Of a DNA stretch of 64,000 nt, positions 1 to 58,627 are shown piece by piece (the first letter of the stretch is position 1; every line of letters begins with the position of its first letter). The notes under the pieces were generated by a model, which worked only from the letters and a program-made list of their open reading frames with translations, searched no databases and was not told where the DNA came from. Made by a program: the position numbers and the translations under genes. This stretch comes from Planctomycetota bacterium. GTDB lineage: Bacteria > Planctomycetota > OFTM77. Where the stretch lies: assembly GCA_040219065.1 (NCBI GenBank), contig JAVJTD010000031.1:32236-96235 (forward strand), read 5' to 3'.

Positions 1-58
1 ACGGACGCCTCATTTATCAAATGAAGGACTTCACCCTGAGCGCCCGGCCGAATCTGTC

Positions 59-3677: not shown

Positions 3678-4684
3678 GGGCGCTCGTCACCGGGGCCGGC
3701 GGCTTTCTCGGCGGCGCGATCACGAGGCAGCTACTCGAGCGCTCGGACGAGGTCAGAAGCTTGGCCCGCGGCGCTTATCCCGAGCTGGAGGCGCTCGGCG
3801 TCGAGACTCGGCGCGGCAGCGTGGCCGATGTCGATGACGTCTTCGAGGCGGCCGAAGGCTGCGACATCGTCTTCCATGTCGCGGCCAAAGCCGGGATCTG
3901 GGGACCAAAGGTCGACTACTTTCGCACCAATGTCGTCGGCACCCGCAACGTCCTCGCCGTGTGTCAGAAGCTGGGCATCGAGCGCCTCGTCTACACGAGC
4001 TCGCCGAGCGTCGTGTTCTCAGGCGGTGACATCGAAGGTCGCGACGAGTCCCTGCCGTATCCCGAACGCTACTTGGCCGCCTACCCCGAGACCAAGGCCC
4101 GCGCCGAGCAAGAGGTGTTGGCAGCGAATGGTCCGTCCCTGCGAACGGTGGCACTGCGCCCGCACTTGATCTGGGGCCCCGGTGACAATCACCTCGTGCC
4201 GAGACTGATCGCCCGCGCGAAGGCCGGTCAGCTCCGTCTCGTCGCCGGCGGCCGCGGCCGCGTCGACTCGGTCTACATCGACGACGCCGCTCGAGCACAC
4301 CTGCTGGCGGCCGATGCGATCGCGGCAGTGGACTCCCCTGCCGCCGGCCAAGCCTACTTTATCTCCCAAGGCGAGCCCTGGACGATGCGCGATCTCCTGA
4401 ACGGCATCCTCGAAGCGGCCGGCCTACCGCCCGAGTCCCGCTCGATCCCGGGCCCCGTCGCCTACTTCGCAGGCGCCCTGATGGAGCTGTCGTATCGGGC
4501 GCGAGGCAAGACCGAAGAGCCCCGCATGACCCGCTTCCTCGCCCACCAGCTCGCCAGGGCCCACTGGTTCGACATCACTGCCGCCCGCCGTGACCTCGGC
4601 TATGAGCCATCGATGTCGATCCACGAAGGCCTCGAGAGATTGAGAGAGTCGTTGCGGGAAACCAGAGCCCACACGGGTCCCTGA
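3653..4684 (+). CDS. oleD: OleD-type NAD(P)-dependent reductase (3-beta-hydroxysteroid dehydrogenase/epimerase family)
   Basis: Rossmann motif LVTGAGGFLGG, a YxxxK (YPETK) active site and an extended SDR/3b-HSD fold. The start may instead be TTG 3674, which overlaps the oleC stop. Confidence 0.75.
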   Translation: MGQGEAALRALVTGAGGFLGGAITRQLLERSDEVRSLARGAYPELEALGVETRRGSVADVDDVFEAAEGCDIVFHVAAKAGIWGPKVDYFRTNVVGTRNVLAVCQKLGIERLVYTSSPSVVFSGGDIEGRDESLPYPERYLAAYPETKARAEQEVLAANGPSLRTVALRPHLIWGPGDNHLVPRLIARAKAGQLRLVAGGRGRVDSVYIDDAARAHLLAADAIAAVDSPAAGQAYFISQGEPWTMRDLLNGILEAAGLPPESRSIPGPVAYFAGALMELSYRARGKTEEPRMTRFLAHQLARAHWFDITAARRDLGYEPSMSIHEGLERLRESLRETRAHTGP

Positions 4685-4924
4685 CATGGAGCCGTAGCCG
4701 GTGGGATGGCGAGGTTCACGGCGTGGACCTCATCCGGCTGGCGATGAGTAAGGGACGATCCGACCTGCCCGTCAGTCAGGTCGTCAGAACGTTCCCTCGC
4801 CTTCGCTTGCGGGATCCGGTCCCGTCGTCCCTCACGAGGCCCCTCTGAATCGGTGGCGAGCTCTGTGCGCGCCGGCGTGTTGCCAACCCCGCGCCAGGGA
4901 CCTGTTCGGGCTCCGATCGTCTGT

Positions 4925-4956
4925 CTCAGCGCCGCCGGTCCGCCGGCGGCGCTGAG
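4925..4956. terminator. perfect 14-bp stem / 4-nt loop GC hairpin between convergent oleD and transporter genes
   Basis: CTCAGCGCCGCCGG-TCCG-CCGGCGGCGCTGAG is read directly in the sequence. There is no U-tract, so any terminator function is inferred. Confidence 0.25.
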
Positions 4957-5304
4957 TTGAAGCTAATGGGAACGCCGCATTCGGACCGCCGGCTTCAGCC
5001 GGTCTCCGTGTCCTCCATCCCAGCGCCTCGGAGAGGACCCAGACCTAAGATCCGAAACTCCGTGGCCCGATGCCGCCGGGGCGATCGGAACGCCATCTTC
5101 AAAGTTGAGAGTTGGAAGTCGAGCCGTTGGACGTTCGGGAGAGCCGGGCTCGACGGGTTTCACCATCTGCATGCTCCGGAGGTCCTCCGCCAGAGCCCGC
5201 GCAACCGAAAACAGAGTCCGCGCGACCGAAACGGGAAGCGGTCACGGAAAGGTGCCGAGCAAGGGGCCGTTCGGAGCGCCGCACCTGATCACACGATCAC
5301 CTGA

Positions 5305-6681: not shown

Positions 6682-6855
6682 GTGCGCTCTCGTTCGGAAG
6701 ACGGGTCGAACGGGTCAGGTGTCCCAGGAAGGTCGGGGCATTCTACGGGCGGCGCCCGGTTCAGAAAAGGCGGCTCCGGCTCAGGTTCCGGCACTCGACC
6801 CGGCCGGGAAGGCCGAAGGCGCGGACGGGGAGTCCTCCACTTGGCCGCGAGTTCT

Positions 6856-6886
6856 GGAAATAAAAAAAACTCCGTAACAAAACGCA
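6856..6886. promoter_or_regulatory. A-tract / AT-rich island in the divergent intergenic region
   Basis: GGAAATAAAAAAAACTCCGTAACAAAAC sits in a 68% GC background, upstream of both the minus-strand transporter and the plus-strand gene at 6987. A UP-element-like role is inferred. Confidence 0.2.
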
Positions 6887-6986
6887 CCTCCGCGGCGAGC
6901 CTAGGGGAATCCCCCTCGCCGTTCCGGGAAGGTGTGCACTCATCGACTCGGTGTGTCATTCCATCAACAACTGATTCAGGCGAGTC

Positions 6987-7485
6987 GATGAAGCTGAGCC
7001 GAGAACGCATTGCGGAGCTCCCCACAAAGAGTCGGGTGGCTTTTGCCGCGGCTTGTGCCAGGCGATCACTCGAGGCACTGATCCAACAGCTCGCCGATCA
7101 GGAGCAGCAAAGGGCCTTCGACAACCTGCAGACGGCCCTCTCCGTGGTCGAGAGCTACGTGACCACGAGGGAGCATCCTCAAGACCCCTTTCGCGCCAAC
7201 GGTCTCGTGACGAACATCCTCGTCAAGCTTCGCGCGGAAGAAGAGCTCGCCGGGCACGTCTGCAGTGTCATCTCCGAAGCCCTCCTGGCGCAGTCCGCCG
7301 CCATGGCGGGCCGAGACGAGGCCATCACCCAGGCCGTCTCTCAGGCCGCCCACATCGCCGCCGACACGATCCTCGGCCGCGAGGTGGTCATCGAGCTGCT
7401 CGGGCGGTGCCTCGAGATCGCTCGTGCCCGCGACTGGGCCGACGACTCCCTCGTCGATCCGGACATCCTCGACGACGCAGGGTGA
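6987..7485 (+). CDS. hypothetical protein (helical, 166 aa)
   Basis: ATG 6987 opens a coherent non-low-complexity ORF. The long ORF-track entry 5323..7485 is otherwise antisense to the transporter. Confidence 0.35.
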
Positions 7486-7526
7486 GTGCTTCTCGGCGCG
7501 GCAACCGCTCGGTAGACTCCCGGTCA

Positions 7527-7684
7527 TGAAGCTCACCACCGGTCAGACCCTCTACCTCATTGGCGCAATCGTCGTGGCGGCCCTGATCACCATTCCGTCG
7601 TGGACGGCGCGCCTCCTGATCGTCCTCGCCGTCGTGATGGGCGTCGTCTCGTGGTGGCTGCGAAGGATGTCGTCCAGGCCGTAG
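7527..7684 (+). CDS. small membrane protein (52 aa, two TM segments)
   Basis: MKLTTGQTLYLIGAIVVAALITIPSWTARLLIVLAVVMGVVSWWL. The hydrophobic pattern is the only support. Confidence 0.3.
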
Positions 7685-7863
7685 GAAGTGCTCCGATTCG
7701 CCCGCGCGGCCAAGTTGTGTCATACTGATCGCAGCCAAGAGATCAAAAGCACCATTTCCAGCCCGCCTGGCTCCGCACCGATCGCGGTCGCCTCATCCGG
7801 CAAACCGCTCGATGCCTGCTTCGCAAAGCCGCCGAAGCGACCGGGCGCGAGACCTTCCGCCAG

Positions 7864-9861
7864 ATGGACATGCGACTGCCCTCCTCGAGCCTCCTTCACA
7901 CCCGCGCGCGCGGCGAGACTCCGACCCACGGCGCGGCACCACCGATTCGAGTGCGGCCCGGGCCCGCCGTCGCTCTAGCCTTCCTTCTCCTCGTCGCGGC
8001 CTGTGGAGATGGCTCAGCGGACCAAGGTCTGGCCCGGATCCCGACGCTGACGACGGGGTCCCTTCATTTGATGTCCGCCGAGCTCCTACAGCCGATCGAG
8101 TCGTCACCGATGCGGCTGGGGCAAGAGACTCGTCAAGCTTGGGTCGATTCGGCTCCCCATCGGCACGCCGTGGACTTGATGCTCGAAGGAGACTACCGGC
8201 TGAGCCTCGCCGTGGGTGTCCCCGAGGGCCTGGAGACGGGCGCGACGTTTCGTGTGCTGTGGAAGGGCGAGGACGGACAGACGGTCGAGGTCCTGGAGAA
8301 GACGCTGGATCCGGCGGCCGGTGGCGCATGGTGCCCGGTGCGGGCGGCGTGGACGGCCAGTGGCCGAGGGCAGCTCCACTTCGAGGCCACCTCGGAGTCC
8401 GAGGAAAGTATCGCCATTTGGGGCAGTCCGGTCTTGTCGGCCGTGTCCCGCCTGAATCGGCCGAGCGTGATTCTGGTGCTCCTCGACACGCTGCGAGCCG
8501 ACCACCTGGGCTGCTACGGCTACCAGGCGCCCACCTCCCCGCGCCTCGACGCCCTCGCCGAGACGGGCGTCCGCTTCGAGCGCGTCCTGGCCCAGGCGCC
8601 GTGGACTCTGCCGGCGACGATGTCGATCCTGACGTCGAGGACACCGACCGCGCACGGCATGATCTCGGCGGAGCGGATTCTGGATCCGTCGATCGAGACG
8701 CTGGCGAGCCGATTTGCCGCGGCGGGGTATCGGACGGCCGCCATCACCGAAGGGGGCATGGTCGACGCACAGTTCGGATTCGATCGCGGCTTCGAGCTGT
8801 ATCTCGGGGACATCCTGGGCCGCAGCGCTCGAGAGACCTTCGAGGCAGCCCGCGAGTGGATCGACTCGGTGGGTGATGAGACCTTCTTCCTCGTCGTCCA
8901 CACCTATGAGATCCACGAGCCCTATGAGCCTCCCGCGGAGTACCTCGAGGTGATCTCGCCGTCCGAGTCACGAGGGCACGTCCATCCGCGACTGAAGGAC
9001 GGATTCGTGGCCGCCGAGCTGTACCGGGGCGCGCTGGCCGCGAAGTCACCGAGCGAGTTCCGGCTAGAAGAGCCGCTGACGCCGGCCGACCTCGAGCACA
9101 TCGTGAGCCTGTACGATGCCGAGATCCGCTTCACCGACGCGTGCCTCGGTGAGCTGGTGGATCACCTGAAGGCGCGCGGACGATACGAAGACACGCTGTG
9201 GGCGATCACCTCCGACCACGGCGAGGACTTCTACGACCACTTCGGCTTCGGGATCCACGCGCACTCGCTCTTCGACGAGCTGTTGCACGTCCCGTGGATC
9301 CTGACGGGACCGGGCGTCGTATCGGGTCATGTCGCGTCCACGCCGGTCGCGCAGATCGACATCGCCCCGACGCTGCTCGAGCTCGTCGGACTCGACATCC
9401 CGGCTCCGTTCATGGGGAGATCGCTCGTTCCCCTGACTCGCGGAATGCCCCTGAAGGCGATCCCGATAGCGAGCGAGCGCTCGCCGGACCTCTCTTGCGT
9501 CGAAGCCGGATCCTACAAGTTGATCGAGGCGACAGCGAGCTACGTCGAGAAGGTCAACAAGAGGAAGAAGACCCAAACCCGCGTGATGTCCAAGACGCTC
9601 GGGCTCGACGTCACGCCGTACTTCCAAGGGCTAGAGGGTGTCCCGGCGGAGACGATGCTGTTCGACCTCGAGAAGGACCCGGGTGAGCGCCGGAACATCG
9701 CCACCAGCGAGCCTGAGAGGATCCGAGACCTCACCGAAGCGCTCGAGCGGCTCCGGCGTCTGAGCGCCGAGCATGCGCCGCAATCGAATTCGACCATTCG
9801 AATGCGCCCGGAGCTCGAGCGCCGGTTGAGGAATCTCGGCTACCTCGGAGACGACGACTGA
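7864..9861 (+). CDS. sulfatase-family (alkaline phosphatase superfamily) lipoprotein
   Basis: Lipobox LLLVAAC. Sulfatase N-terminal metal-binding block VILVLLDTLRADHLGCYGY and later ITSDHGEDF / HAHS motifs. Confidence 0.75.
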   Translation: MDMRLPSSSLLHTRARGETPTHGAAPPIRVRPGPAVALAFLLLVAACGDGSADQGLARIPTLTTGSLHLMSAELLQPIESSPMRLGQETRQAWVDSAPHRHAVDLMLEGDYRLSLAVGVPEGLETGATFRVLWKGEDGQTVEVLEKTLDPAAGGAWCPVRAAWTASGRGQLHFEATSESEESIAIWGSPVLSAVSRLNRPSVILVLLDTLRADHLGCYGYQAPTSPRLDALAETGVRFERVLAQAPWTLPATMSILTSRTPTAHGMISAERILDPSIETLASRFAAAGYRTAAITEGGMVDAQFGFDRGFELYLGDILGRSARETFEAAREWIDSVGDETFFLVVHTYEIHEPYEPPAEYLEVISPSESRGHVHPRLKDGFVAAELYRGALAAKSPSEFRLEEPLTPADLEHIVSLYDAEIRFTDACLGELVDHLKARGRYEDTLWAITSDHGEDFYDHFGFGIHAHSLFDELLHVPWILTGPGVVSGHVASTPVAQIDIAPTLLELVGLDIPAPFMGRSLVPLTRGMPLKAIPIASERSPDLSCVEAGSYKLIEATASYVEKVNKRKKTQTRVMSKTLGLDVTPYFQGLEGVPAETMLFDLEKDPGERRNIATSEPERIRDLTEALERLRRLSAEHAPQSNSTIRMRPELERRLRNLGYLGDDD

Positions 9862-10061
9862 CGCACCCTGCAAATCGAGCGCGCCGCCGCAAGGAGTGCC
9901 CAAGCCGAAGCGAGCGGAAGACGACCTGGTCGAGAAGGCAACACCGAGCGAGCTTGGGCCAAGGCAGCGCAGAACGCGTCGAGCAAGGAGTGCTCACGAA
10001 CCTTCGAGCTCCCATCCTTGCGCCCGGAAAGCCCCTCTGCCTATAATCCGGCCCTCGACGT

Positions 10062-10139
10062 CGGGGCGTAGCTCAGCCTGGTTAGAGTGCCTGCTTTGGG
10101 AGCAGGAAGTCGGTGGTTCGAATCCACTCGCCCCGACCA
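10062..10139 (+). tRNA. tRNA-Pro (anticodon UGG)
   Basis: 78-nt cloverleaf. Acceptor stem CGGGGCG/CGCCCCG, anticodon stem CCTGC/GCAGG with loop TTTGGGA, T-arm GGTGG-TTCGAAT-CCACT, discriminator A and encoded CCA. Confidence 0.85.
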
Positions 10140-11032: not shown

Positions 11033-11393
11033 GCCCGCTCTGGCGACGTGCGTGCCGACGCAGCCTCGCTGGGAAGCGATGAGAGACCGCGATAGGCAGC
11101 GACGAAGGCGCGTCGACTGAGAGTCGATCCGTGCCGACTCTATACCGGGTCACTTCTTGGCGAAGGACGGCTGGGTGATCCCGCCGGTCTGGAGCGCTCT
11201 GTAACACGCAGGCAAAACCGTCGGCCGGACCTGCGAGACGTCGGCTCGAGCCCGTAAGTTGTCGCGTCCTCCTCACGGACTCGGAGTGAATCGGACTGCG
11301 ATCGAGCTGGCGATCCTGGGCATCTCGAGCTCGAGGCTCCGAGCACGTGCGTCGTCTTCACCCTACCGCCGGACCAATGTGAGAGCTTGCCCC

Positions 11394-12581
11394 ATGAGAA
11401 TCCCATTTGCCTTTCGCAGACGCTCGTCGAGCAGAAGGCCATTGCTTGGCAAGGGCTCGGGCCTGCCCGTCACAGCGCTGCTGTGCGTATGGACGGCTGC
11501 TTGTTCAGGTGGACAGAGAGGTGCCGACCTGGCGCGGGCCTCCTCGGCTCCCCGCGCCGATGCGAGCGTCGCGACCGGCGAGGTCGTCTCCGACATCGGC
11601 GCGAGCTGCTGGATCGTGTTCCAGGATGCCGACGACAACTACTGGTTCGGGTCCGATGGCAACGGTGTCTGCCGCTATGACGGCAAGACGATCACGCGCT
11701 TCACGACCCGGGACGGCCTGACCGGCGACCGTGTGCGCGGAATCGATCAACACGGTCCCTCGGGCGACATCCTCGTCACCTCGCTGAGCGGCATCAGCCG
11801 GTTCGACGGCGAGCGATTCCAGGAGCTGCCCAAGAAGGAGATGACTTCCCCCGACTCGCTCAACGAGCAGGGGTGGCGCCTCGATCCCGACGACGTGTGG
11901 CTTCGTGGTCCGCTGGGGCCGTGTCGGTACGACGGTCAGACGCTCTACGCACTGAGGCTCCCGAAGAGCCCGCGCGAGGACGAATACCTCGCGAGGAATC
12001 CGAATCGGCCTTGGAGTCCCTACGACGTGTGGTGCGTGTACAGGGACCGCAGTGGCCACCTGTGGCTCGGAACGGGATACGTCGGCGTCTGTCGCTACGA
12101 CGGCAAGACGTGGAATTGGATGTACGAGTCGCACATGACCGAGGTGGGCGACGCGTGGTTCGGCTTTCGCTCGGTCATCGAGGACGAGGACGGCGCGTTC
12201 TGGATCTGCAATACGAAGCATCGCTATCGTTTGACGCTGCCCGTCGGTCCCTTGGCCGAGGTAGAAAACCGCTTCGAACAGCTTGCCTACACGCGCGAGC
12301 CCGGAGTCGATCCGGCAGCGCTGGCACCCGGAGAGAGCCCGATCTACTTCCAGTCCGTCGTCGCCGATCCGGCCGGTGAACTGTGGATGGTGACCTACCA
12401 CAAGGGTGTGTGGCGCTACGACGGCCGGAACATGACGCACTATCCGATCATGGACGGCACCGAGGTCGTCCTGCTCTACTCGATCTACCGGGATCGGCAC
12501 GACGGGCTGTGGCTGGGAACGCACGAGCACGGCGTGTACAAGTTCAATGGTGAGTCGTTCGAGCGCTTCGCGCCGAGGTGA
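11394..12581 (+). CDS. lipoprotein with two-component-regulator-propeller-like (Reg_prop/Y_Y_Y-type) beta-propeller repeats
   Basis: Lipobox LLCVWTAACSG. Repeated W/Y-rich blades (GVCRYDGKT, VWRYDGRNMT, HGVYKFNGESF). ATG 11394 was chosen over the ORF-track start 11259. Confidence 0.55.
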   Translation: MRIPFAFRRRSSSRRPLLGKGSGLPVTALLCVWTAACSGGQRGADLARASSAPRADASVATGEVVSDIGASCWIVFQDADDNYWFGSDGNGVCRYDGKTITRFTTRDGLTGDRVRGIDQHGPSGDILVTSLSGISRFDGERFQELPKKEMTSPDSLNEQGWRLDPDDVWLRGPLGPCRYDGQTLYALRLPKSPREDEYLARNPNRPWSPYDVWCVYRDRSGHLWLGTGYVGVCRYDGKTWNWMYESHMTEVGDAWFGFRSVIEDEDGAFWICNTKHRYRLTLPVGPLAEVENRFEQLAYTREPGVDPAALAPGESPIYFQSVVADPAGELWMVTYHKGVWRYDGRNMTHYPIMDGTEVVLLYSIYRDRHDGLWLGTHEHGVYKFNGESFERFAPR

Positions 12582-12705: not shown

Positions 12706-12776
12706 GGAGTCCTACCGCAGAGGAACGCAGAGAATTGGGAGCTTGCCTAATTCCGGTGGAGCGATGGAGGACCCGG
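12706..12776 (+). repeat. conserved leader element copy 1 (about 75 nt)
   Basis: GGAGTCCTACCGCAGAGG...GGGAGCTTGCCTAATTCCGGTGGAGCGATGGAGG. A second copy lies at 14696..14776 with about 90% identity. It ends with an SD-like GGTGGAG plus ATG. Confidence 0.6.
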
Positions 12777-12919
12777 TGCGGAGGAACACCTCGATGATCG
12801 AGAGAGGCAAAGACACCTCTGCGCTCTCCGCGTCCTCTGCGGTGAAGGAGAGCCCGCGCAATCGCTGTCGCGGGTACGCAACTGCCAGCCCCTCCGGTAC
12901 CGACGCGCACAGTACATGA
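12764..12919 (+). CDS. 51-aa ORF initiated by the ATG embedded in leader element copy 1
   Basis: It uses the same ATG context as the cassette A3 start but does not resemble the A proteins. It may be a leader peptide or non-coding. Confidence 0.2.
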   Translation: MEDPVRRNTSMIERGKDTSALSASSAVKESPRNRCRGYATASPSGTDAHST

Positions 12920-14695: not shown

Positions 14696-14776
14696 GGAGT
14701 CCTACCGCAGAGGTCGCGGAGGAACGCAGAGACATGGGAGCTTGCCTAATTCCGGTGGAGCGATGGAGGGCCCGGG
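14696..14776 (+). repeat. conserved leader element copy 2 (with an 8-nt insertion)
   Basis: Aligns with 12706..12776. It supplies the SD and ATG (14763) of cassette gene A3. Confidence 0.6.
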
Positions 14777-15107
14777 GCTGTTGGGAGTCGCCGCCGGCAC
14801 GGCAGCGGTCGTGAAGACCAAGAGCCCGATGGCGCAATCACCCCAGAATCAAGAAGACCTCAATCGAGCGCCTGGGCTCACTCAGGAGATCGCGACCAAG
14901 ATCCTGGTCGAGCAAGACAGAGACGCCGTGTACCGGATTCTCGGCCACTACGACCGACTTGATCCCATCGAGCGGAGCGAGTTCTGGGGCCTAGCACTCG
15001 CCTTCGAGCTGAAGGACCTCAGGACCTTCGCCGAGATCCCTGCTCGTGACGAGACGAATCCTCTGGTGAAAGCTCGGCTCGAGACGTTTTTCCAGCTGAG
15101 TCGGTAA
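14763..15107 (+). CDS. cassette protein A3 (paralog of A1 and A2)
   Basis: DAVYRILGHYDRLDPIERSEFWGLALAF motif. The start at the leader ATG is a guess; the ORF-track start 14553 is less likely. Confidence 0.5.
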   Translation: MEGPGLLGVAAGTAAVVKTKSPMAQSPQNQEDLNRAPGLTQEIATKILVEQDRDAVYRILGHYDRLDPIERSEFWGLALAFELKDLRTFAEIPARDETNPLVKARLETFFQLSR

Positions 15108-24710: not shown

Positions 24711-25547
24711 ATGCCCGGCGATTGGAATCCGGATCAGTACCATCGCTTTCGGGACGAGCGGAGCCGGCCCTTCTTCGACCTGATGGAATGCGTCGGCGAA
24801 GGCCGGGGCCGGACCTGCCTGGATCTCGGCTGCGGGACGGGCGAGCTGACGGCGGAGCTGCACCGCGAGAAGTCGTTCGAGCTCACCCTCGGCATCGACC
24901 GATCGCCTGCCATGCTCGGTCGAGCGCGGGAGCATGAAGAGGCGGGGCTTCGTTTCGAGGCCGGGGACATCGCCACCTACGAGCCGCGCTCCACGGTCGA
25001 CGTCGTCTTCTCGAACGCGGCGCTGCATTGGGTCGATGATCACCCGGCACTCTTGACGCGGCTGCGCACCTGGCTGCATCCCGGCGGTGAGATCGCGGTC
25101 CAGGTGCCGGCCAACCACGACACCGCGACTCACGAGGTGGCGAACGAGGTCGCTGGCGAGGAGCCGTTTCGGAGCGAGCTGAAGGGCCACGTGCGCGAGT
25201 CCCCGGTCCTGAAGCCGGACGAGTACGCCCGGCTGCTGCATCGACTCGGCTTTCGGCAGCCGACCGTGCGACTCGAGGTGTATCCCCATGTGCTCGACCG
25301 GCGCGACGACGTCATCGAGTGGGTCCGAGGCACGCTCCTGACCGCCTACCAAGTGCGCCTCTCGGGTCCGACCTACGAGCGATTCCTCGAGCGCTACCAA
25401 GAGAGGCTCTTCGAGGTCCTGCCCGATGAAGAGCCGTTCTTCTACCCCTTCAAGCGCATCCTGATGTGGGGGAAGCTGATTCAGGGGACGACGACGGTCC
25501 ACACCGTCCGGGGCGAAATCGAAGACGACGGACCCGGCCGCTCTTGA
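24711..25547 (+). CDS. tam: trans-aconitate 2-methyltransferase
   Basis: WNPDQYHRFRDERSRP N-terminus and SAM motif LDLGCGTGELT co-linear with Tam. Confidence 0.8.
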   Translation: MPGDWNPDQYHRFRDERSRPFFDLMECVGEGRGRTCLDLGCGTGELTAELHREKSFELTLGIDRSPAMLGRAREHEEAGLRFEAGDIATYEPRSTVDVVFSNAALHWVDDHPALLTRLRTWLHPGGEIAVQVPANHDTATHEVANEVAGEEPFRSELKGHVRESPVLKPDEYARLLHRLGFRQPTVRLEVYPHVLDRRDDVIEWVRGTLLTAYQVRLSGPTYERFLERYQERLFEVLPDEEPFFYPFKRILMWGKLIQGTTTVHTVRGEIEDDGPGRS

Positions 25548-25558
25548 CCGTCTCGAAT

Positions 25559-25800
25559 GGAGTGCCCAAGCCGAGCGAGTCAGTGACCGAGTCTGCCGGT
25601 GAGCGCTTTGCGCAAGCGAGCTTGGACCCTCCAGTTGCGCCGGGCCACGACGTTGCAGCGAGAGCGTCTACTCAAAAGGCACCCTTGCTCGGAGCCTCAC
25701 AGCTCGGTCGTCAGCGCTGTCGAGGAAGCGACATCCAGCTCGGTGACCGCTCCCCGTTTCGGTCGCGCGGGCTCTGGTTTTGGTCGCCCGCGCTCCCAGT
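25559..25800. repeat. about 240-nt repeated intergenic element, copy 1 (candidate structured sRNA or MITE-like repeat)
   Basis: Shares GGAGTGCCCAAGCCGAGCGAG.C.GTGACCG, GCGAGCTTGG.CCC and GTCGAGGAAGC..CCAGCTCGGTGAC.GCT.CCCGTTTCGGTCG.GCGGGCTCTGGTTT blocks with 48596..48815. The central part is variable. Confidence 0.6.
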
Positions 25801-25808
25801 GGCTCCGA

Positions 25809-26900
25809 TCACACGGGGGGCCGCCCCTTTTGGCGATGGCTGGCGCCGAGCTGGGTGGCGAGCTCGATGACGCGGGAGCGGATGGCCTGACCCAGGTCGT
25901 CGAGCGGGTGGACCTCATCGGCGACACCGTTGTCGATCACGGCCTGTGGCATCGACGTCGCCACGCAGGTCGCAGGATCCTGCACGAGGATTCGGCCCCC
26001 GCTCCTCTTGATCGAGACGGCTCCACTCGCCCCGTCGCGCCCCATCCCGGTCAGGACGACTCCGATCCCGAAGCTGCCCCAGGTGTCGGCCACGCTTCGG
26101 AAGAGAGGGTCGGCGGCGGGCCGCACGAAGTTCTCCGTCGGACCGTCGTTCAGTGCCAGCTTGGGGCTCTTGCTGGATTCGAGCACGAGGTGTCGATCTC
26201 CCGGAGCGAGGTAGAGCTTGCCCGGCGCGCACTCTTCGCCCTTCTCGGCCAAGCGGACCTCGAGCTCGGTGTCCCTCTGGAGCCGCTCGGCGAAGTTCGA
26301 GAGCATCCAAGCCGGGCCGTGCTGGACCAAGAAGAAGGCGGCAGGGAGGTTGCCACTGAGGCGCGGCAGGATTGCCGAGAGAGCGCCTGGGCCCCCCGTG
26401 CTCGATGCGATGCAGACACCGAGGAAGCTCGGAACGTCGGCGCGTGGAAGACCCGAGGCCGCGTTCTCGAGGCGGCGGCCTGACGAGGGAGGCCGGTCCT
26501 CGAAGGAAGCCGCAGTCGGTTGCGGCAGGCCGAGCTGGTCGGCCAATCGGCGAGCGATCTGATCGGGGGAGCAAGGCTTGGCGATGAAGTCGTTGGCGCC
26601 GGCATCGAGCGCGTGGGTCCTGGCCTCGGCCGAGTCCAAGGACGTCAGCACGGTGAGCCACGGGACCGGATCGATCTCGGCGCGGATGCGCCGGAGCAAC
26701 CGCATGCCGTTGACGCGAGGTAGGATCCAGTCGGTGAGCACGGCGTCGAATCGACCGCGGCGGAGGATCTCCCAGGCCTCGACTCCGTCTTCGGCGACGG
26801 ACACATCGAACCCGGCCCGGCCCAGTCCTCGCTCCAGGATCAAGGCGACGGTGCGATCATCCTCGACGATCAAGATGCGAGCTCTTGAAGACGCCTTCAC
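25809..26900 (-). CDS. cheB: chemotaxis response regulator protein-glutamate methylesterase CheB (copy 1)
   Basis: N-terminal receiver (ILIVEDD...D...K) and C-terminal methylesterase with the GMGRDG motif. Confidence 0.85.
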   Translation of the reverse strand: MKASSRARILIVEDDRTVALILERGLGRAGFDVSVAEDGVEAWEILRRGRFDAVLTDWILPRVNGMRLLRRIRAEIDPVPWLTVLTSLDSAEARTHALDAGANDFIAKPCSPDQIARRLADQLGLPQPTAASFEDRPPSSGRRLENAASGLPRADVPSFLGVCIASSTGGPGALSAILPRLSGNLPAAFFLVQHGPAWMLSNFAERLQRDTELEVRLAEKGEECAPGKLYLAPGDRHLVLESSKSPKLALNDGPTENFVRPAADPLFRSVADTWGSFGIGVVLTGMGRDGASGAVSIKRSGGRILVQDPATCVATSMPQAVIDNGVADEVHPLDDLGQAIRSRVIELATQLGASHRQKGRPPV

Positions 26901-27046
26901 TTTTGCCTTCCGAATCTTCGAATCGGGGACTTCGAGCCGTGAGCGGCCCTGCCGGAACGGTCACTGTCACCGAGTGCCCGGGCCGCCGCCGCCCGGTCGT
27001 CTTGCTCGAGGGCAAGACCTCCAACAAAGAGGGAGGGAGGAGCCGA

Positions 27047-27547
27047 TCACCCGTTGTAGCTTTGTCGAATGATGTGGAGCTGAGCATCCACCGGACCCAG
27101 GCTCATCTGGGTGACCGAATGCTCGTAGGAGCCGTTGAGCTCGATGCGACCGTGCAGGAACACGGGCAGACCTAGCCGGATGCTCGGCTCGCGCTCGATC
27201 AGGCGACCCTTGACGACGCCGGCGAGGATGTTGACGATCTCACCCAAGGCATCGACCATGTCGCTCGGATCGAGCTCGCCGTCCTCGGGCTCCATGCACA
27301 GGAGCGCCCTTGCGATCTCCTCGCAACCCTGGCTTCGAGCGATCACGCCGATCTGGACGGAGACGCCCTCACTGACCATCGGGATGTAGGCACCCGAGAC
27401 CCCATCGGGGAGCTGGTCCTGGTCGTAGACGCGGAACTCCACGTCGGAGTAGCCGAGAGCCGTCGTGGCGAACTCCTCGACGGCCGCCCGAGTGGCATCG
27501 GTCCAGTCCTGGATGGTGACTGGTGTCAGTTCCTGGGGCTCACTCAT
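27047..27547 (-). CDS. cheX: CheX/CheC-family chemotaxis phosphatase
   Basis: CheC-like consensus DALGEIVNILAG. Its 167-aa size and position next to cheY support the call. Its start overlaps the cheY stop. Confidence 0.6.
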   Translation of the reverse strand: MSEPQELTPVTIQDWTDATRAAVEEFATTALGYSDVEFRVYDQDQLPDGVSGAYIPMVSEGVSVQIGVIARSQGCEEIARALLCMEPEDGELDPSDMVDALGEIVNILAGVVKGRLIEREPSIRLGLPVFLHGRIELNGSYEHSVTQMSLGPVDAQLHIIRQSYNG

Positions 27548-27906
27548 GACATCACCGAGTTGAGAGCTTCCTGGAAGGTCTCGACCGTGAACGGCTTGGT
27601 GATGAAGAACATCGCCCCATTGTCGGACGCCAGCTTGTGCATCGCGGGCGTGCCCTCGGAGGTGACGAAGCCGAACTTCACGGTCGTGCCGGCCTCGTTG
27701 AGGTTGCGCAGGAGATCGATGCCGTTCATCTCCGGCATGTTCCAGTCGCACAGGATGAGATCCGGCGTACCATTCTGCACCAGGCCGAGCGCCTCCTTGC
27801 CGTTGGCAGCCTCTTCGACCGAGTGCTCGCCGAAGCCCGCCTGACGCAGGGTCCGCCTGACGATCATTCGCATGGCCTTGCTGTCGTCGACGATCAGGAT
27901 CTTCAT
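27544..27906 (-). CDS. cheY: chemotaxis response regulator CheY
   Basis: 120-aa single receiver domain: MKILIVDDS, phospho-acceptor D in LILCDWNMPEMNG and a conserved K in TKP. Confidence 0.85.
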   Translation of the reverse strand: MKILIVDDSKAMRMIVRRTLRQAGFGEHSVEEAANGKEALGLVQNGTPDLILCDWNMPEMNGIDLLRNLNEAGTTVKFGFVTSEGTPAMHKLASDNGAMFFITKPFTVETFQEALNSVMS

Positions 27907-28039
27907 CGTTCTTCCCCTCGATGATGGGTCTTGGATGTTCGGGCCGAAGCTCGGCCCCGGCGTAGAAGGCCGCCCGAAGGGCGGACCGTGGCATTTTCGA
28001 GTGATCGGATCGCACCTCGGGTGGCGACCCGCGCAATGA

Positions 28040-28864
28040 TCATTCCTTCAAACGAAAACAGGCCGTCTTGACCTCCGGGACGGTCTCGAAGGCCTCTCCC
28101 GCCGCCAGCGTCATCTCTGGTGCCCCCAGGAACAAGAACCCGTCCGGCCGGAGCCGGGGTCGAATGGCCTGCAGGACGTTCCTCTTGGTCTCCGGGCTGA
28201 AGTAGATGAGCACGTTGCGCAAGAAGATGAGATCGAAGGGCTCACCCCGCACCGGGAGATTCAACAGGTTCAAGGACCGGAACGTGACGAGCTCGGTGAC
28301 CTCCGGGTGCAGCGCCCAATCGTTGCCGTCCTTGACGAAATACTTCTGCAGGTACATCGACGGCAGACCACGCCCCACCTCGAGGCTGGAGAAGCGACCG
28401 CGACGAGCACGCTCGATGACCAGCTCCGAGATGTCGGTGGCCAGGATCGAGATGTCCCAGCTCGCAAGGTCATTGAACTTCTCGAGGATCGTCATCGCGA
28501 TGCTGAAGGGCTCTTGTCCCGTCGAGCAGGCCGCGCTCCAGATGCGGATCCTCTTGTCCTCCCGGCGCGACCTTCGCAGCATCGGGAGGATGACCTCGTT
28601 CAAGGCATCGAAGGGCGTTTGGTCGCGAAAGAACGACGTCTCGTGCGTCGCCATCGCATGAACGATGCGATCGGTGACCGGCGAGCTCGGCGTCGATTCG
28701 GCGGCACTCAGCAGCGCATGGGCCGAGTCTTGTCCCGAGGCTCTCGCCAGCTCCGAGAGTCGGAACTCGATCAGGTAGTTCTTCCCCTCGTCGAGCACGA
28801 TTCCCGAGCGCTTTCGAACCAGATCGCGAACGAACTGGTACTGTTGAGCGGACAAAGAGCTCAT
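28040..28864 (-). CDS. cheR: chemotaxis protein methyltransferase CheR (copy 1)
   Basis: CheR N-terminal helical domain plus SAM-MTase core (IWSAACSTGQEPFSIAM, LRNVLIYF). The start is set at MSSLSAQQ; upstream extensions in the ORF track are rejected. Confidence 0.85.
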   Translation of the reverse strand: MSSLSAQQYQFVRDLVRKRSGIVLDEGKNYLIEFRLSELARASGQDSAHALLSAAESTPSSPVTDRIVHAMATHETSFFRDQTPFDALNEVILPMLRRSRREDKRIRIWSAACSTGQEPFSIAMTILEKFNDLASWDISILATDISELVIERARRGRFSSLEVGRGLPSMYLQKYFVKDGNDWALHPEVTELVTFRSLNLLNLPVRGEPFDLIFLRNVLIYFSPETKRNVLQAIRPRLRPDGFLFLGAPEMTLAAGEAFETVPEVKTACFRLKE

Positions 28865-29967
28865 GTGACGGGTCTCGAGGTCGGGTCGATGCGGGGCGCG
28901 GGGCTCGCTCCTCGTCCGGCCTGCGCCGCCCGTGTGAGGCGCGGGGCAACCTGGCCGAGGGGCACGACGTCGTCGGCGAGGCCGGCTTGGGCAACGGCGC
29001 CTGGCATCCCCCACACGATCGAGGTCGCCCGGTCTTGCACGAGGACTCTCGCTCCGGCGGCCTTGAGCGTTTGCGCTCCGAGGAGACCATCCTGTCCCAT
29101 GCCCGTGAGCACGACGCCCAGGACACGGTTTCCGAACACCTCCACCGCCGACTGGAAGAGCACGTCGGCCGCCGGGCGGCAGGAGTTCACCGGCTCGGTG
29201 TCGGTGAGAGCCGTCTCGATCTGGATTCCTTGACGCCGCACCGTCAGGTGCCGTCCGCCGGGCGCGATCCAGATCTGGTTCGGTCCCAGCACCTCGCCGC
29301 CTTGGGACTCCCGCACCTCGAGCGGCGTCTGGGCATCGAGCCTCTGCGCCAGGAGTTGAGTAAAGGTCGGCGGCATGTGCTGCACGATCAGGATCGGGAT
29401 CGGCAGCGTGGCCGGGAATTGGGAGACGATGTCCGCCAGAGCGTTCGGGCCACCGGTGGACACGGCGACGACGATCGCGTCGACCTTCTGCGACGGTGCT
29501 GCCGCCGGGGAAGTCGCATTGAGCGTGGTAGCGGCAACCGCGAGGCCCACTGGACGCAGTCGTCCGCACAGCGCCTTGATCTTGGGAATCAGGTCTTGGC
29601 GGATGCGGTCCATCGCCGTGCTCACGCTGCCGACGTTGGCGGGTTTGGCGACGTAGTCGGAGGCACCGCGCGAGAGCGCCTCGAGCGTGGCAGCGGCACC
29701 GCGCTCGGTGCGCGTGCTGAACATGATCACGGGAAGCCGCGGCCATTTCTTGCGGATCTCGGAGACCGTCTCGAGACCGTCGAGCACCGGCATCTCGACA
29801 TCGAGGATCACGACGTCCGGCTGCACCTGCTCGATACGGGTCAAGCCGACTCTTCCGTTCGGTGCGGTTCCCGCGACCAACAGCTCTGGATCATCCGAGA
29901 GCACGTTGGTCAGCATGCGCCGCACGACGATCGCGTCATCGACGATGAGGACACGCAGCTTGTTCAT
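28861..29967 (-). CDS. cheB: CheB methylesterase (copy 2)
   Basis: Receiver domain (VLIVDDA...VILDVEMPVLDG) plus methylesterase with GMGQDG. Confidence 0.85.
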   Translation of the reverse strand: MNKLRVLIVDDAIVVRRMLTNVLSDDPELLVAGTAPNGRVGLTRIEQVQPDVVILDVEMPVLDGLETVSEIRKKWPRLPVIMFSTRTERGAAATLEALSRGASDYVAKPANVGSVSTAMDRIRQDLIPKIKALCGRLRPVGLAVAATTLNATSPAAAPSQKVDAIVVAVSTGGPNALADIVSQFPATLPIPILIVQHMPPTFTQLLAQRLDAQTPLEVRESQGGEVLGPNQIWIAPGGRHLTVRRQGIQIETALTDTEPVNSCRPAADVLFQSAVEVFGNRVLGVVLTGMGQDGLLGAQTLKAAGARVLVQDRATSIVWGMPGAVAQAGLADDVVPLGQVAPRLTRAAQAGRGASPAPRIDPTSRPVT

Positions 29968-30115
29968 GTCGGATCCTTGCCTGGCTGCACTCGATCTCGC
30001 GCCGCCGGCTGGGCGGTCGCCCCCAGAGACACTGGCGCCGAACCGCGAAGACGACTCGGCACCTGGACCAGCTCCTGGTCTCGAAGAGCCGGCCGGAGCA
30101 GAGCCCTTTTCGCGA

Positions 30116-30598
30116 TCACTTCAAGTAGAGCGAGATCCGACCATCGCTGTATCCGGGCACCGACACCCGGAAGTGGTCGTTGACCTCGGAATCGTCGCAG
30201 AAGTCGACGGTGCGCTCATCGGCCGGATTGCCCGGCGACAGCACCTTCGAGAGGCGGATGCGGGACGGGCCGTGGAACAGGTTCACGCACACGTTGAGCA
30301 CTTCGCTCACGTTCTCGAAGATGTTCTCGGGGATCTGCGAAGTGCGAATGCAGTCTTCCGCCACGCCCGGCGGGATGAGCGCCAGGGCGGCGCCCATGCT
30401 GCTGCTGAGCGGCAGATCGATGACGCAAACGGCCACCGTGTTCTCTTCCGCATCCTGATAGACGGCGACGGTCAGCGGCTGCGCGCAGTCGGGCTCGAGG
30501 GCCGAGCCGCCCGCGTTGACCGTGACCTCCTTGCCCAGGAGGCTGGTCAGCGTCTTACGGACGTCATCCTGATCCGGCAAGCTGTACGAGTCGGACAT
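30116..30598 (-). CDS. hypothetical 160-aa protein within the che operon (weak CheC/CheX-like E-x2-N signature)
   Basis: ENIFENVSEVLNVCVNLF resembles the CheC-family E..N motif. It is not a CheD or CheW match, so function is unassigned. Confidence 0.35.
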   Translation of the reverse strand: MSDSYSLPDQDDVRKTLTSLLGKEVTVNAGGSALEPDCAQPLTVAVYQDAEENTVAVCVIDLPLSSSMGAALALIPPGVAEDCIRTSQIPENIFENVSEVLNVCVNLFHGPSRIRLSKVLSPGNPADERTVDFCDDSEVNDHFRVSVPGYSDGRISLYLK

Positions 30599-41786: not shown

Positions 41787-44242
41787 CCTTCGATGGCGCC
41801 CTTGCTTGGACACCGCTCGTTCTTGCCCTGAAGGTCAGCCTCCTCGTCTCGGTCCTGTGGCTCCTTCACCCTTGGCTTCGCCGCAGCACCGCCCGCACCC
41901 GCGCCCTCGCGACCACGGCCACCCTCGCCGGTGCCCTCCTCGTCCCCATGACCGGTTGGCTGCCTCGCTGGGAGCTCCCCCTCGTCACGCTCGAGAGCCC
42001 GGCTCCTGACCCGCTCCCCATCGCGATACTTCCTGAGGAGGTCTTCACGGAGGGCGCCATCGAGCCGATCGGGCCACAGGTCGCGCCGCAAGTCTCGTCA
42101 GAAGGCCCTGCCTCGAGCCTCTCACTCGGCGTCGGCCTCGAGACCATCTGGTGGCTCGGCTCCAGCCTCTCACTCCTGCTCATCGCTTCGGGGCTGCTGC
42201 TCGCGACGCGTTGGAAACACCGAGCGACTCCGGTCCGCTGCCCGCTCTGGCTCGCGGACCTCGAGCGGCTGCGCCTCCGGCTGGGAGTCCGCCGGGCGGT
42301 CGACCTGCGGTCCGGCACTCACGTTCCCGGACCGCTCACGTTCGGTCACCTCCGCCCGACGATCCTCGTTCCGACTGACCATCACGAGTGGTCGCCCGAG
42401 CGCCGGGAGATCGTCCTCCTCCACGAGCTCGCTCACGTGCGTCACGGTGACTGGCTCGCCCAGCTCATCGCCCGCGCCGCCCGCGCTCTCTACTGGTTCC
42501 ACCCGCTCGTCCGACGTGCCGCTGCGCAGTGGCAAGTCGATCGCGAGCTCGCCTGCGACGCCGCCGTCGTCGCCGCCGGCATCCGACCCTCGCGCTACGC
42601 CTCCGAGCTCCTCGCGTTGGCTCAAATCGAGCCGCCGCGAGCGAACGCCCGAACACTGGGCCTGTGGATGGCCCATCCTCGAAAGCTGGAAGGAAGAATC
42701 ATGGCACTCCGACACGCAGTCGGTGCACCGCGCCGCTCGCGAGCGCTCTACTGGCTCGCCTTCACGGGTCTCTTCGCCATCGGCATCGGAACGCTCCAGC
42801 CGTGGGCGGCCGCCCAGGACGATGACCACCGCGTCGTCTGGGAAAGCGCCTCCGGTGAGCAGGTCGTCCTGGATACCTCGGACGGGAACACCGTCATCTT
42901 GATCCGCCGTGACGGGGAGGACCTGCGGCGCATCGAGCTGAAGGGAGACCCTGCCGAGATCGAAGGGGACGCGAGATACGCCATGCGCACTCGCAAGAGT
43001 GACGACGGGCACACCGTCCACGAATGGATCGTCCCCGAAGCCGACGACGGCCGAGCCGTCCGAGAGTGGCTCGTTCCCGACTCCGAGGACGGTCAGACGG
43101 TCTGGCGTTTGGCGAGGCCAAGAGCCGTTGGCGAGCAGGATCGATTCCCGTCCTCCGGCGAGGTGCAAATCGATGGAGAGACCATGCGCTACCGGAGTCG
43201 CCCGACTGAGTGGCCCTCGGGGCAAGTTCGCTCCGACCAAGAGGTCATCGAGTATCGCTCGGTTCCCCGGCCTTCGAGCCCCGACGGGTCCAACGACGTC
43301 TACTGGTACGACGACCAGTGGCGGACGATGCAAGACTCCGAGCGATACGAGGTGATCATCGAGAGCTCTGGTGAGTCGGGCCGGACCCGTCGCTACGTCG
43401 TCGACGAGAAGGGGCGCCCCGTACCCGCGCCGAAAGCCGCCCCCCGCGCTCGCCGCGCCATTCGCGACTCCGACGGGCCCTCCTCGAATGAGCCACAGCC
43501 GCGGAGCCGCGTGCGCTTCCAGGATCGCGATGAGGCCTGGCGGCCCCGTTTGCGAACGGATCTCTGGGAAGAGGCCCCGCAACCCAACCCCCAAGAGTCT
43601 CCGCGCATCGAGCGAGCCCCGCGGATAAACAGAGCTCCGCGTGTCGAAAGGGCCCCGCGTATCGAGCGTGCCCCGCGGATAAATAGAGCGCCTCGCATCG
43701 AGCGAGCCCCGCGTGTCGAGCGTGCCCCGCAGATCAATAGAGCGCCTCGCATCGAGCGAGCCCCGCGTCGTGCCCCGTCTCGCGAGGCCGTTCGGTCGTC
43801 GCAGCAGGACATGGGCATCAATAGGCGTCAGCCGAGCGCGATCCGTCGACCGGCGATCATTCCGGACACCGAGCCCGAGCCACGCGCTCTGCGCCTTCCA
43901 TCTTCTGCTCCTCGCGCCCGCTCAATCTACCGCACCCAGCCTCCGCAGCCATCACCCTCGCCTCGCCCGCAAGTCTACTTCCGTAGTCCGGCACCCTCGA
44001 TTGACACGGCTCCTGCGCCACCTCGCGTCATGCGCTTTCAAGCGCCGCCGGTCGAGACGCCCTCGGCGCCTCGGAGCCGCTACTTCCGCAACTCGGAGAC
44101 GCTTCCCGAGCCGGCTCCGGTCCAGCCCCGCGCATTGCGCCGCGGTGTGCCGGGCGCTCCTGAGCGCATTCGCGAGGATCGCCCCGAGCCGACTCCAGTA
44201 AAGCCGAAGGGCAAGATCGTTCGCGCCAACACGATGCGCTGA
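41783..44242 (+). CDS. BlaR1/MecR1-like M56 peptidase-domain membrane sensor with a long repetitive C-terminal region
   Basis: HEXXH in LLHELAHVRHGDW within a polytopic N-terminal region. The C-terminal half is low-complexity, with about 10 tandem RAPR(I/V)(E/N) hexapeptides. Confidence 0.7.
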   Translation: MTFDGALAWTPLVLALKVSLLVSVLWLLHPWLRRSTARTRALATTATLAGALLVPMTGWLPRWELPLVTLESPAPDPLPIAILPEEVFTEGAIEPIGPQVAPQVSSEGPASSLSLGVGLETIWWLGSSLSLLLIASGLLLATRWKHRATPVRCPLWLADLERLRLRLGVRRAVDLRSGTHVPGPLTFGHLRPTILVPTDHHEWSPERREIVLLHELAHVRHGDWLAQLIARAARALYWFHPLVRRAAAQWQVDRELACDAAVVAAGIRPSRYASELLALAQIEPPRANARTLGLWMAHPRKLEGRIMALRHAVGAPRRSRALYWLAFTGLFAIGIGTLQPWAAAQDDDHRVVWESASGEQVVLDTSDGNTVILIRRDGEDLRRIELKGDPAEIEGDARYAMRTRKSDDGHTVHEWIVPEADDGRAVREWLVPDSEDGQTVWRLARPRAVGEQDRFPSSGEVQIDGETMRYRSRPTEWPSGQVRSDQEVIEYRSVPRPSSPDGSNDVYWYDDQWRTMQDSERYEVIIESSGESGRTRRYVVDEKGRPVPAPKAAPRARRAIRDSDGPSSNEPQPRSRVRFQDRDEAWRPRLRTDLWEEAPQPNPQESPRIERAPRINRAPRVERAPRIERAPRINRAPRIERAPRVERAPQINRAPRIERAPRRAPSREAVRSSQQDMGINRRQPSAIRRPAIIPDTEPEPRALRLPSSAPRARSIYRTQPPQPSPSPRPQVYFRSPAPSIDTAPAPPRVMRFQAPPVETPSAPRSRYFRNSETLPEPAPVQPRALRRGVPGAPERIREDRPEPTPVKPKGKIVRANTMR
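43601..43785 (+). repeat. tandem 18-bp in-frame repeats encoding (E/N)RAPR(I/V) units
   Basis: ATCGAGCGAGCCCCGCGG-like units are reiterated about 10 times in the nucleotide sequence. Confidence 0.75.
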
Positions 44243-48595: not shown

Positions 48596-48815
48596 GGAGT
48601 GCCCAAGCCGAGCGAGCCGGTGACCGCGTCCGAGCGAGCTTGGGCCCGGGCGCACCGAGCCGGCAAGAAGTGCATTCCGAATGGCCCCTCGCTCGGCACC
48701 TTTCCGCTCGATCGGTGGCACCGTCGAGGAAGCCGCTCCCAGCTCGGTGACTGCTACCCGTTTCGGTCGTGCGGGCTCTGGTTTCGTTCGCGCGGGATTT
48801 GGTCTCATCTCAGCT
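48596..48815. repeat. about 240-nt repeated intergenic element, copy 2
   Basis: Aligns block-wise with 25559..25800 in the same orientation. Its 3' end abuts or overlaps the decarboxylase stop. Confidence 0.6.
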
Positions 48816-50312: not shown

Positions 50313-50437
50313 GGGAAAGCTCCTGGCGAGGCTCGATTGAGTTGCTACAATCCGAGCGATTGAGAGAGGTCGGAAGTGATCAATGCCACTTCTATCGCTT
50401 GATCTCACGCCGTCAACAGAAACATTGGATCGATACA

Positions 50438-51832: not shown

Positions 51833-51834
51833 GT

Positions 51835-52135
51835 TGGCAATCCGTTCCCGGCACAAATGGCCCACTTTGGCGATCGAGCGCCTGCAATGTTGGCAATCCG
51901 TTCCCGGCACAAATGGCCCACTTTGGCGATCGAGCGCCACCATTGCCCCTGCCTGACCACTTGGCATTTGCGAGAACAAAGGCACCAAGGACCCTCCTCG
52001 ATGTCCCACTCTGTCCAGCAAAGTGGGCCATTCGTGCCGGGAACAAAGTGCTCACTTTAAAAAGTGGGCCATTCGTGCCGGGAACAAAGTGCTCACTTTC
52101 AAAAGTGGGCCATTCGTGCCGGGAACAGAGTGCTC
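51835..52135. repeat. intergenic repeat array: 2 direct 50-nt units plus 3 inverted 41-nt units sharing a roughly 25-nt core
   Basis: GTTGGCAATCCGTTCCCGGCACAAATGGCCCACTTTGGCGATCGAGCGCC twice (51835..51884 and 51891..51940), then AAAGTGGGCCATTCGTGCCGGGAACAAAGTGCTCACTTT three times (52019..52135). The cores are reverse complements. Confidence 0.8.
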
Positions 52136-56768: not shown

Positions 56769-56984
56769 GATAGGGCTCTTCCTGGAGAAATGGGCCGGGC
56801 TGGAAGTGGGGCGAGCTTCGTGCCGCTCAGGCTACGGCAGACGGCTGGAAGGGGCAAGCCTGGAGGGAGGGTTGGGCGCCAGGAGTGCCTGAGCCGAATG
56901 AGCCTGTGGCCGCGAATCGAAGCCGACGCCACCGAGCGAGCGAGCTGTCCGACTGCCGGAGCTGCTCGAGGATCTTCAGATTGA

Positions 56985-58578: not shown

Positions 58579-58627
58579 ACACGGAGGACACGGGGAGATT
58601 CATACGACAGGAGCACGGGGTCCTTCA

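Follow-up and report, generated by a model that had tools for sequence, protein, structure and literature searches.

The 64-kb stretch of an uncultured Planctomycetota genome analysed here (the window) carries five copies or fragments of a short repeated element, 5/5 of them located in intergenic DNA. We consider that these sequences probably constitute a lineage-specific, modular and non-coding family of intergenic repeats, similar in kind to the BOX, BIME, REP and PATE elements of other bacteria. The element is repeated, modular, non-coding and intergenic, the hairpins of both of its modules (denoted L and R) are conserved, and the structure of the R hairpin is specific to the + strand. The family represents an ordinary kind of bacterial repeat, with no demonstrably new RNA gene; it falls outside any Rfam family, is not a classical MITE, as judged from the failed inverted-repeat test, and is not a canonical REP.

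Two full-length copies of the element

Two full elements, each consisting of an L module, a divergent centre and an R module, lie on the + strand at positions 25559..25804 (copy A; nhmmer E = 1e-78, A being one of the two copies used to build the model) and 48596..48802 (copy B; delineated by alignment and nhmmer). An earlier note on this DNA, made from the letters alone, had proposed a two-copy repeat at these loci. Both copies are indeed real and homologous and begin where the note placed them, but the similarity of copy B stops at ~48802 rather than at 48815. The two copies are ~200-245 nt long and share ~75% column identity in a MAFFT alignment, which contains six perfectly conserved blocks (21, 12, 11, 13, 13 and 14 nt) and, between them, a divergent centre in which indels of 19, 3 and 11 nt occur; the alignment bears out the pattern of conserved blocks around a divergent core described in the note. 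Diagnostic patterns of 31 nt and 21 nt occur twice each in the 64-kb window and 0 times in 100 dinucleotide-preserving shuffles of the window, and the 3' 109 nt of the element match between the copies in the window with a BLASTN E of 3e-23.

The element almost fills the spacers of 261 nt and 264 nt in which copies A and B, respectively, reside. Their common orientation and intergenic position, both pointed out in the earlier note, hold: both copies are on the + strand and inside spacers. The statement that they sit at the 3' ends of genes applies fully to copy A, which is flanked by the convergent 3' ends of a SAM-methyltransferase gene (24711-25547, +) and a CheB gene (25809-26900, -), but not to copy B, which has one 3' end and one 5' start as neighbours, namely the stop of a PLP-dependent decarboxylase gene (48810, -) and the start of a GNAT acetyltransferase gene (48545, -). 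Being a + strand element between two - strand genes, copy B is antisense to the GNAT/decarboxylase pair. The CheB gene next to copy A opens a chemotaxis cluster (25809-30120) that includes two genes for CheB-type methylesterase/response regulators (25809-26900 and 28861-30120) as well as CheY, a CheX-domain protein, an MCP, CheW and CheA.

Partial copies and modular organization

Searching the 64-kb window with a profile built from A and B (nhmmer) and by pairwise alignment revealed three partial copies, C, D and E. Thus, the family is not restricted to two copies; such a restriction is what the earlier note had envisaged as speaking against its own reading. Copy C (5190-5275, -; nhmmer E = 1.3e-9) consists of the R module only and is located ~30 nt past the stop of a nucleoside symporter gene (5305-6681, -), with which it is co-oriented; compared to B, it is missing a 42-nt internal hairpin segment. 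Copy D (9893-9993, +; nhmmer and pairwise alignment) is an L module only, extending from GGAGTGCC to the central GCAAGGAGTGC, and lies between the end of a sulfatase gene (9861) and the promoter and gene of tRNA-Pro (10062-10139). Copy E (56882-56946, +; E = 3.7e-17 with a model that included E itself) is a degenerate L module in the divergent promoter spacer between a large FG-GAP/DUF7133 gene (-) and a MAP3K_TRAF_bd/TPR-S gene (+).

The L module, ~100 nt long, is accordingly present in A, B, D and E, and the R module, of ~90-125 nt, in A, B and C. In the pairwise alignment, copy C starts at TCCGAAyGGCCCC, the sequence which in B comes after GCAAGGAGTGC. Because copy D ends about where copy C begins when both are aligned to B, copies A and B are composites of L and R: the modules are joined in A and B, whereas R stands alone in C and L stands alone in D and E. 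The left boundary of the element is sharp, with 4/4 L copies beginning at GGAGTGCC and the upstream flanks being unrelated. A covariance model of the R hairpin, run over the window with filters off, recovered the three known R copies and a weak fragment at 4657..4711 (-), a possible remnant of the R tail, GTGGGCTCTGGTTTCC, that scored 14 bits (E ~0.2) and gave an 18-nt BLAST match; this R-like tail is a weak match which may have arisen by chance. In the 9-kb extension to the right of the window, 0 further copies were found.

The surroundings of the partial copies display several features of their own. Copy C adjoins an unusually long non-coding spacer of ~500 nt (4685-5190), for which Rfam returned nothing and which includes a strong 13-bp hairpin, TCAGCGCCGCCGG-CGGA-CCGGCGGCGCTGA, at ~4925-4957. 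Directly downstream of copy D is the tRNA-Pro(TGG) gene with its upstream sigma-70-like promoter, TTGCGC-N18-TATAAT (10019-10139). To the right of copy E, positions 57256-63069 of the window and positions 1-9900 of the right extension encode TIR_2, bpMoxR/AAA_5, patatin+TPR-S and MAP3K_TRAF_bd/TPR-S proteins along with large unannotated ORFs, and this region looks like an anti-phage defence island.

Other repeats are also present in the window. About 11 tandem copies of the 18-nt unit CCGCG[T/C][A/G]TCGAGCG[A/T]GCC occupy 43583-43785; this unit contains CGAGCGAGC, which recurs in the element. A second repeat family is found at 51830-52142, in the spacer between a GntR/aminotransferase gene and an FG-GAP/DUF7133 gene, where two 56-nt direct repeats are inverted relative to three 41-nt tandem repeats (~82% complementary) and where one end of a contig from the Logan assemblies falls. 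Finally, a 64-nt direct repeat (92% identical) occurs twice, 2 kb apart, at 12716-12779 and 14715-14778, and may reflect duplication of a regulatory region or constitute a third family of small repeats.

The arrangement of copies A and B, in the same orientation and 23 kb apart, is what one would see if they were attL/attR-like direct repeats bordering an island, or remnants of a segmental or gene duplication. However, we regard this as extremely improbable: the copies are only ~75% identical over 200-245 nt, three more copies are found beyond the 23-kb interval, and the interval itself has a uniform GC content (0.63-0.67) and is made up of the chemotaxis operon and an ECF-sigma fusion gene, with no integrase or mobility gene among the genes scanned. 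The genes flanking the copies are mutually unrelated, and the copies themselves show no coding signal. With copies present on the outside and no mobility genes on the inside, the island variant in particular is effectively refuted.

Conserved hairpins in the L and R modules

The L module comprises the GGAGTGCC head followed by an 8-bp stem, GCCCAAGC/GCTTGGGC, enclosing a variable interior of 24-42 nt, so that the hairpin spans 45-65 nt overall. In copy B (48601..48645, +), its predicted energy is -25.2 kcal/mol, well below that of shuffled sequences (z = -4.1). The same stem is found with one mismatch in copy A (~25564-25627, +; z = -0.2) and in copy D (9898-9959, +; z = -1.6), where the stem and the CCGAGCGAG that flanks it on either side are unchanged but the interior has been swapped wholesale. 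In copy E, the pairing is lost (z = +0.65), and with a stem unable to pair this copy appears to be decaying.

The 3' part of the R module forms a bulged hairpin of ~15 pairs, after which come U3-4 and, next, a second, related unit of ~20 nt. The layout of the hairpin is CCAGCUCG-GUGACyG-(10-nt loop CUnCCCGUUU)-CGGUCGy-G-CGGGC-UC-UGG, and the sequence immediately after it is UUUU, UUUCGUU or UUUUCGG among the three R copies. In copy A (25735..25781, +), the hairpin has 15 pairs and the 10-nt loop CUCCCCGUUU, folds at -19.9 kcal/mol and is followed by UUUU. In copy B (48739..48784, +; -14.1 kcal/mol, followed by UUU), two G-C pairs are changed to G-U, and in copy C (5207..5253, -; -14.3 kcal/mol, followed by UUUU), one C-G pair is replaced by U-A and another by A-U. 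The hairpin is formed in 3/3 copies, with two compensatory pairs in C and two GC-to-GU changes in B. In the three-way alignment, 93% of the cells fall into standard pairs, compared to 27-42% after displacing the 3' partner by 1-3 columns; with three sequences only, the covariation is not convincingly above that of shuffles, 59/500 of which reached the observed value.

The R hairpin carries two to four G-U pairs, and for this reason the complementary strand of the element folds worse, with energies of -14.6 (A), -9.4 (B) and -11.9 (C) kcal/mol and with folds that are inconsistent across the copies. It follows that the R structure is one specific to the element's + strand, be it RNA or single-stranded DNA. 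A role at the RNA level is conceivable, considering that two local hairpins are conserved and that the 3' one has strand-specific G-U pairs and compensatory changes.

With energies of -14 to -20 kcal/mol and U3-4 at its end, the R hairpin follows a co-oriented gene in copies A and C but not in B. In A and C, the hairpin and its U tract would probably serve as a terminator or a stabiliser of the 3' end of the transcript. Because B is oriented against its flanking genes, a terminator role cannot account for every copy. Having a 10-nt loop and only 3-4 T after it, the R hairpin was passed over by a simple terminator scan that requires >= 5 T and a loop of <= 8 nt.

These observations could also be explained if the copies were cis-acting terminator or 3'-UTR modules duplicated on account of their function, with no mobility implied, as suggested by the position of A after the methyltransferase gene and of C after the nucleoside symporter gene, each in the orientation of the gene, and by a conserved, + strand-specific hairpin with a U tract. 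Nevertheless, we find this explanation quite unlikely, since no co-oriented gene precedes copy B, the L module, which occurs without R in D and E, is left unexplained, and the U tract is short, with no terminator called by the scan. Furthermore, the small hairpin followed by TTTT at 25815-25833, 30 nt downstream of A, means that a separate candidate terminator is already present near this copy.

Distribution outside the window

Beyond their own database entries, the decarboxylase and CheB of the window have next-best homologues that are only 60% and 56% identical. In the nearest available relative, GCA_029260795.1, the neighbourhood of the aminotransferase, methyltransferase and CheB genes is kept (71, 61 and 56% amino-acid identity, respectively). 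The orthologous spacer in that genome is ~140 nt long and unrelated, and the 21-kb locus contains no L or R module. The methyltransferase gene (24711-25547) is inverted with respect to its counterpart in the relative (locus 11249-12013), the aminotransferase and CheB genes keep their places, and copy A lies at one junction of this inversion.

Wider searches provided chance matches or none. Among 185,579 species-representative genomes, the R pattern GGTGACNGCTNCCCGTTTCGG, which would also miss copy C, gave 18 loci that match the pattern itself only; these chance loci are mostly from Paraburkholderia and Stenotrophomonas. In JGI metagenomes, the L pattern GAGTGCCCAAGCCGAN{0,1}GCGAG gave 3 matches, about the number expected by chance; two of these fall within coding sequence, and the third is located upstream of a small zinc-ribbon ORF. 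Searches of IMG/VR viral contigs with both module patterns yielded 0 matches, and BLASTN of the whole elements against plasmids and phages yielded no match. Divergent relatives may escape such searches because they rely on short exact patterns or on BLAST. Within their reach, the family appears to be confined to this lineage.

A Logan contig, SRR26147846_8043, matches window positions 48760-51859 exactly; one of its ends falls inside the R hairpin of copy B and the other inside the 56-nt tandem repeat. Both ends are suggestive of assembly-graph breaks at repeats, although contig ends can have other causes. At the break in copy B, B shares no 30-mer with A or C. Should a repeat also lie behind the hairpin-side break, SRR26147846 would contain either a further B-like R copy or a strain variant.

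Coding potential, known RNA families and whole-element folding

Several lines of evidence indicate that the element does not encode a protein. Substitutions in the 3' block lack codon periodicity, GC3 in every frame of the element is 0.62-0.78 compared to 0.80-0.88 in the window genes, and Pfam gave no match to the spurious ORFs overlapping the copies. A small-protein gene was ruled out on these grounds (no 3-nt substitution periodicity, GC3, Pfam) together with the indel lengths of 19, 3 and 11 nt. A protein-database search with translations of the open frame +1 of A, B and C, aimed at ORFs miscalled over other copies, returned 20 word candidates, none of which scored.

The earlier note could not match the element to tRNA, tmRNA, SRP, RNase P or 6S RNA, and the Rfam check that we ran likewise found no relevant family. 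At the gathering threshold, Rfam 15 detected only tRNA-Pro in the whole window, as did ARAGORN. At E <= 10, copies A and B matched only spurious eukaryotic miRNA and IRES models (13-18 bits), and at E <= 5-10 nothing relevant was detected in the region of copy C; the families without a match include 6S, tmRNA, SRP, RNase P, riboswitches, HEARO and other omega RNAs. The copies also have no common promoter, since conservation stops at the GGAGTGCC boundary: ahead of it, A, B, D and E cannot be aligned with one another, and inspection of the 5' block for sigma-70 or sigma-54 promoters, by scan and by eye, revealed nothing convincing.

Folded as a whole, the element is no more stable than shuffled sequences (z = -0.67 and -1.03). 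Within the element, CGAGC is confined to the 5' half and GCTCG to the 3' half (2 and 3 occurrences, respectively, in A, and 5 and 3 in B), the window average being ~6 per kb for each. In the RNAalifold consensus of A and B, the 5' block AAGCCGAGC pairs with the 3' block GCUCUGGUU, and the L segment GUGACCG pairs with CGGUCGC of the local R hairpin, so that the long-range and local pairings compete. Many alternative pairings are possible, because this consensus is derived from two sequences rich in CGAGC/GCTCG. Considering that both the global fold and the inverted alignment (see below) match shuffled sequences, we do not take long-range pairing or terminal inverted repeats as established.

We also considered whether A and B might be paralogous small-RNA genes or 3' UTR-derived RNAs, a possible though unlikely reading, in which the two copies would correspond to + strand transcripts of ~200-245 nt, with C, D and E as their truncated or decayed paralogues. 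In such RNAs, a 5' hairpin domain and a 3' end forming an intrinsic terminator would be conserved on either side of a variable centre, and discrete transcripts starting at GGAGUGCC from their own promoter would be expected. Consistent with this, the conserved ends and variable centre recall known pairs of small-RNA paralogues, the R hairpin is + strand-specific, with G-U pairs, compensatory changes and a following U3-4, and copy B runs antisense to the genes around it, as might a free-standing small-RNA gene. The RNAalifold pairing of AAGCCGAGC with GCUCUGGUU, in competition with the local R hairpin, could be taken in the same sense, but the two-sequence consensus, rich in CGAGC/GCTCG, admits many other pairings. 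Against small RNAs argue, moreover, the global folds that are no better than shuffles (z = -0.67, -1.03), the lack of anything conserved upstream of GGAGTGCC and of a sigma-70-like promoter, and the lack of an Rfam match even at E <= 10. In addition, some copies are half-elements and one has decayed, the syntenic spacer of the nearest relative lacks the element, and the genome, metagenome, viral, plasmid and phage searches gave only chance matches or none.

It is very unlikely that A and B represent an undescribed class of structured regulatory RNA, or orphan guide or scaffold RNAs of a hairpin-recognising mobile element. As a regulatory RNA, the element would work as a switch: the L segment GUGACCG and the R segment GUGACyG would compete for CGGUCG, and the terminator hairpin would either form or be pre-empted by a long-range helix.

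The earlier note had concluded that the pattern is more like a structured RNA or a MITE family than a gene duplication. A non-coding repeat family is what we recovered, but neither of the two specific labels could be established. In the case of structured RNA, two local hairpins are conserved, but there is no Rfam family and no common promoter, and the global fold resembles that of shuffles.

Mobility hallmarks and proposed mode of spread

The label of MITE fits the element insofar as it is short, non-coding and present in several copies, but its inverted repeats are no better than those of shuffles, and no consistent target-site duplication was seen. Specifically, alignment of the 5' half with the reverse-complemented 3' half scores 16-17, compared to a shuffle mean of 16, with 273/500 and 178/500 shuffles scoring at least as well; terminal inverted repeats are thus absent by this measure, and a seed-based inverted-repeat search also detected no terminal inverted repeats. 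No direct repeat recurs consistently in the flanks that were inspected; with a right boundary that is fuzzy, a duplication of 2-4 nt is still compatible with the data. The left flanks end in ...GAAT, ...CATC, ...GCAA and ...GCCA, that is, without a conserved target motif. No transposase, integrase or RAYT was identified among the ~34 Pfam-annotated genes of the window or the called genes of the 9-kb right extension.

We favour the interpretation as a modular intergenic repeat family, in which the copies would have spread by the action of a trans-acting enzyme (RAYT or IS200/IS605-type) recognising the conserved hairpins and the head, or else by recombination. The invariant stems, enclosing interiors that vary freely, suggest recognition by a protein. 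Y1 transposases that recognise single-strand hairpins leave neither terminal inverted repeats nor target-site duplications. The lack of both in our copies would fit a hairpin-recognising single-strand transposase, although the target motif of IS200/IS605 elements is absent. Judging from the identities of ~75-90% and the broken stem of E, most copies are probably old and decaying by now.

Comparison with known systems

To our knowledge, interspersed intergenic repeats are poorly catalogued in Planctomycetota, and a literature search, which located reviews of classical MITEs (PMC10969869, PMC3184786), yielded nothing on such repeats specific to this phylum. The family leaves current concepts unchanged, and its use is chiefly practical. 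The two-module definition provides an annotation mask, so that the spacers are no longer mistaken for genes or novel RNAs; the repeats would explain assembly breaks in short-read metagenomes of this organism; and they offer markers of rearrangement, as exemplified by copy A at the junction of the methyltransferase inversion. Should the R hairpin prove to be a terminator, the family would be a case of selfish repeats supplying terminators in a phylum in which terminators have been little studied.

Like classical MITEs such as Correia/NEMIS and ERIC/IRU, the family described here consists of intergenic elements of 100-250 nt in multiple diverged copies, which can carry terminator-like hairpins; unlike them, it has no significant inverted repeats, and no target-site duplication was seen. 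With regard to regulatory RNAs, OmrA and OmrB are small-RNA paralogues with conserved ends and a variable centre. The resemblance to OmrA/OmrB and to 6S-like RNAs lies in the conserved 5' and 3' blocks, the divergent core, the terminator-like 3' hairpin and the possibility of pairing between the 5' and 3' ends, whereas the lack of a conserved promoter and of an Rfam match (6S included), the existence of half-copies and the absence from the nearest relative set our elements apart.

A closer parallel in architecture is offered by the REP/RAYT and PATE systems, with which the family shares a short head (GGAGTGCC here, GTAG in REPs) placed just before an imperfect palindrome, as well as strand-specific hairpins near both ends without terminal inverted repeats or a visible target-site duplication. 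REPs, however, are 20-40 nt long and have a GTAG-type head, whereas the L hairpin spans 45-65 nt, so that the architecture is analogous but not the same. The IS200/IS605-derived PATE elements have subterminal hairpins at both ends and no inverted repeats, an arrangement that L and R reproduce, but the conserved target of 4-5 nt located 5' of their left end is absent here.

The BOX elements of Streptococcus pneumoniae are modular repeats of the boxA-boxB-boxC type, and BIMEs are enterobacterial mosaics. Both are short, non-coding and intergenic, are composed of separable modules with stable hairpins, lack a transposase of their own, and can affect termination or stability of neighbouring transcripts. 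Our family differs from them in that it has no sequence similarity to either, belongs to another phylum, is built from two modules, with five copies in 64 kb, and has module hairpins with long variable interiors. In its general organization, however, it is of the same kind: hairpin-forming, non-coding intergenic modules, either joined or solo, with no transposase of their own.
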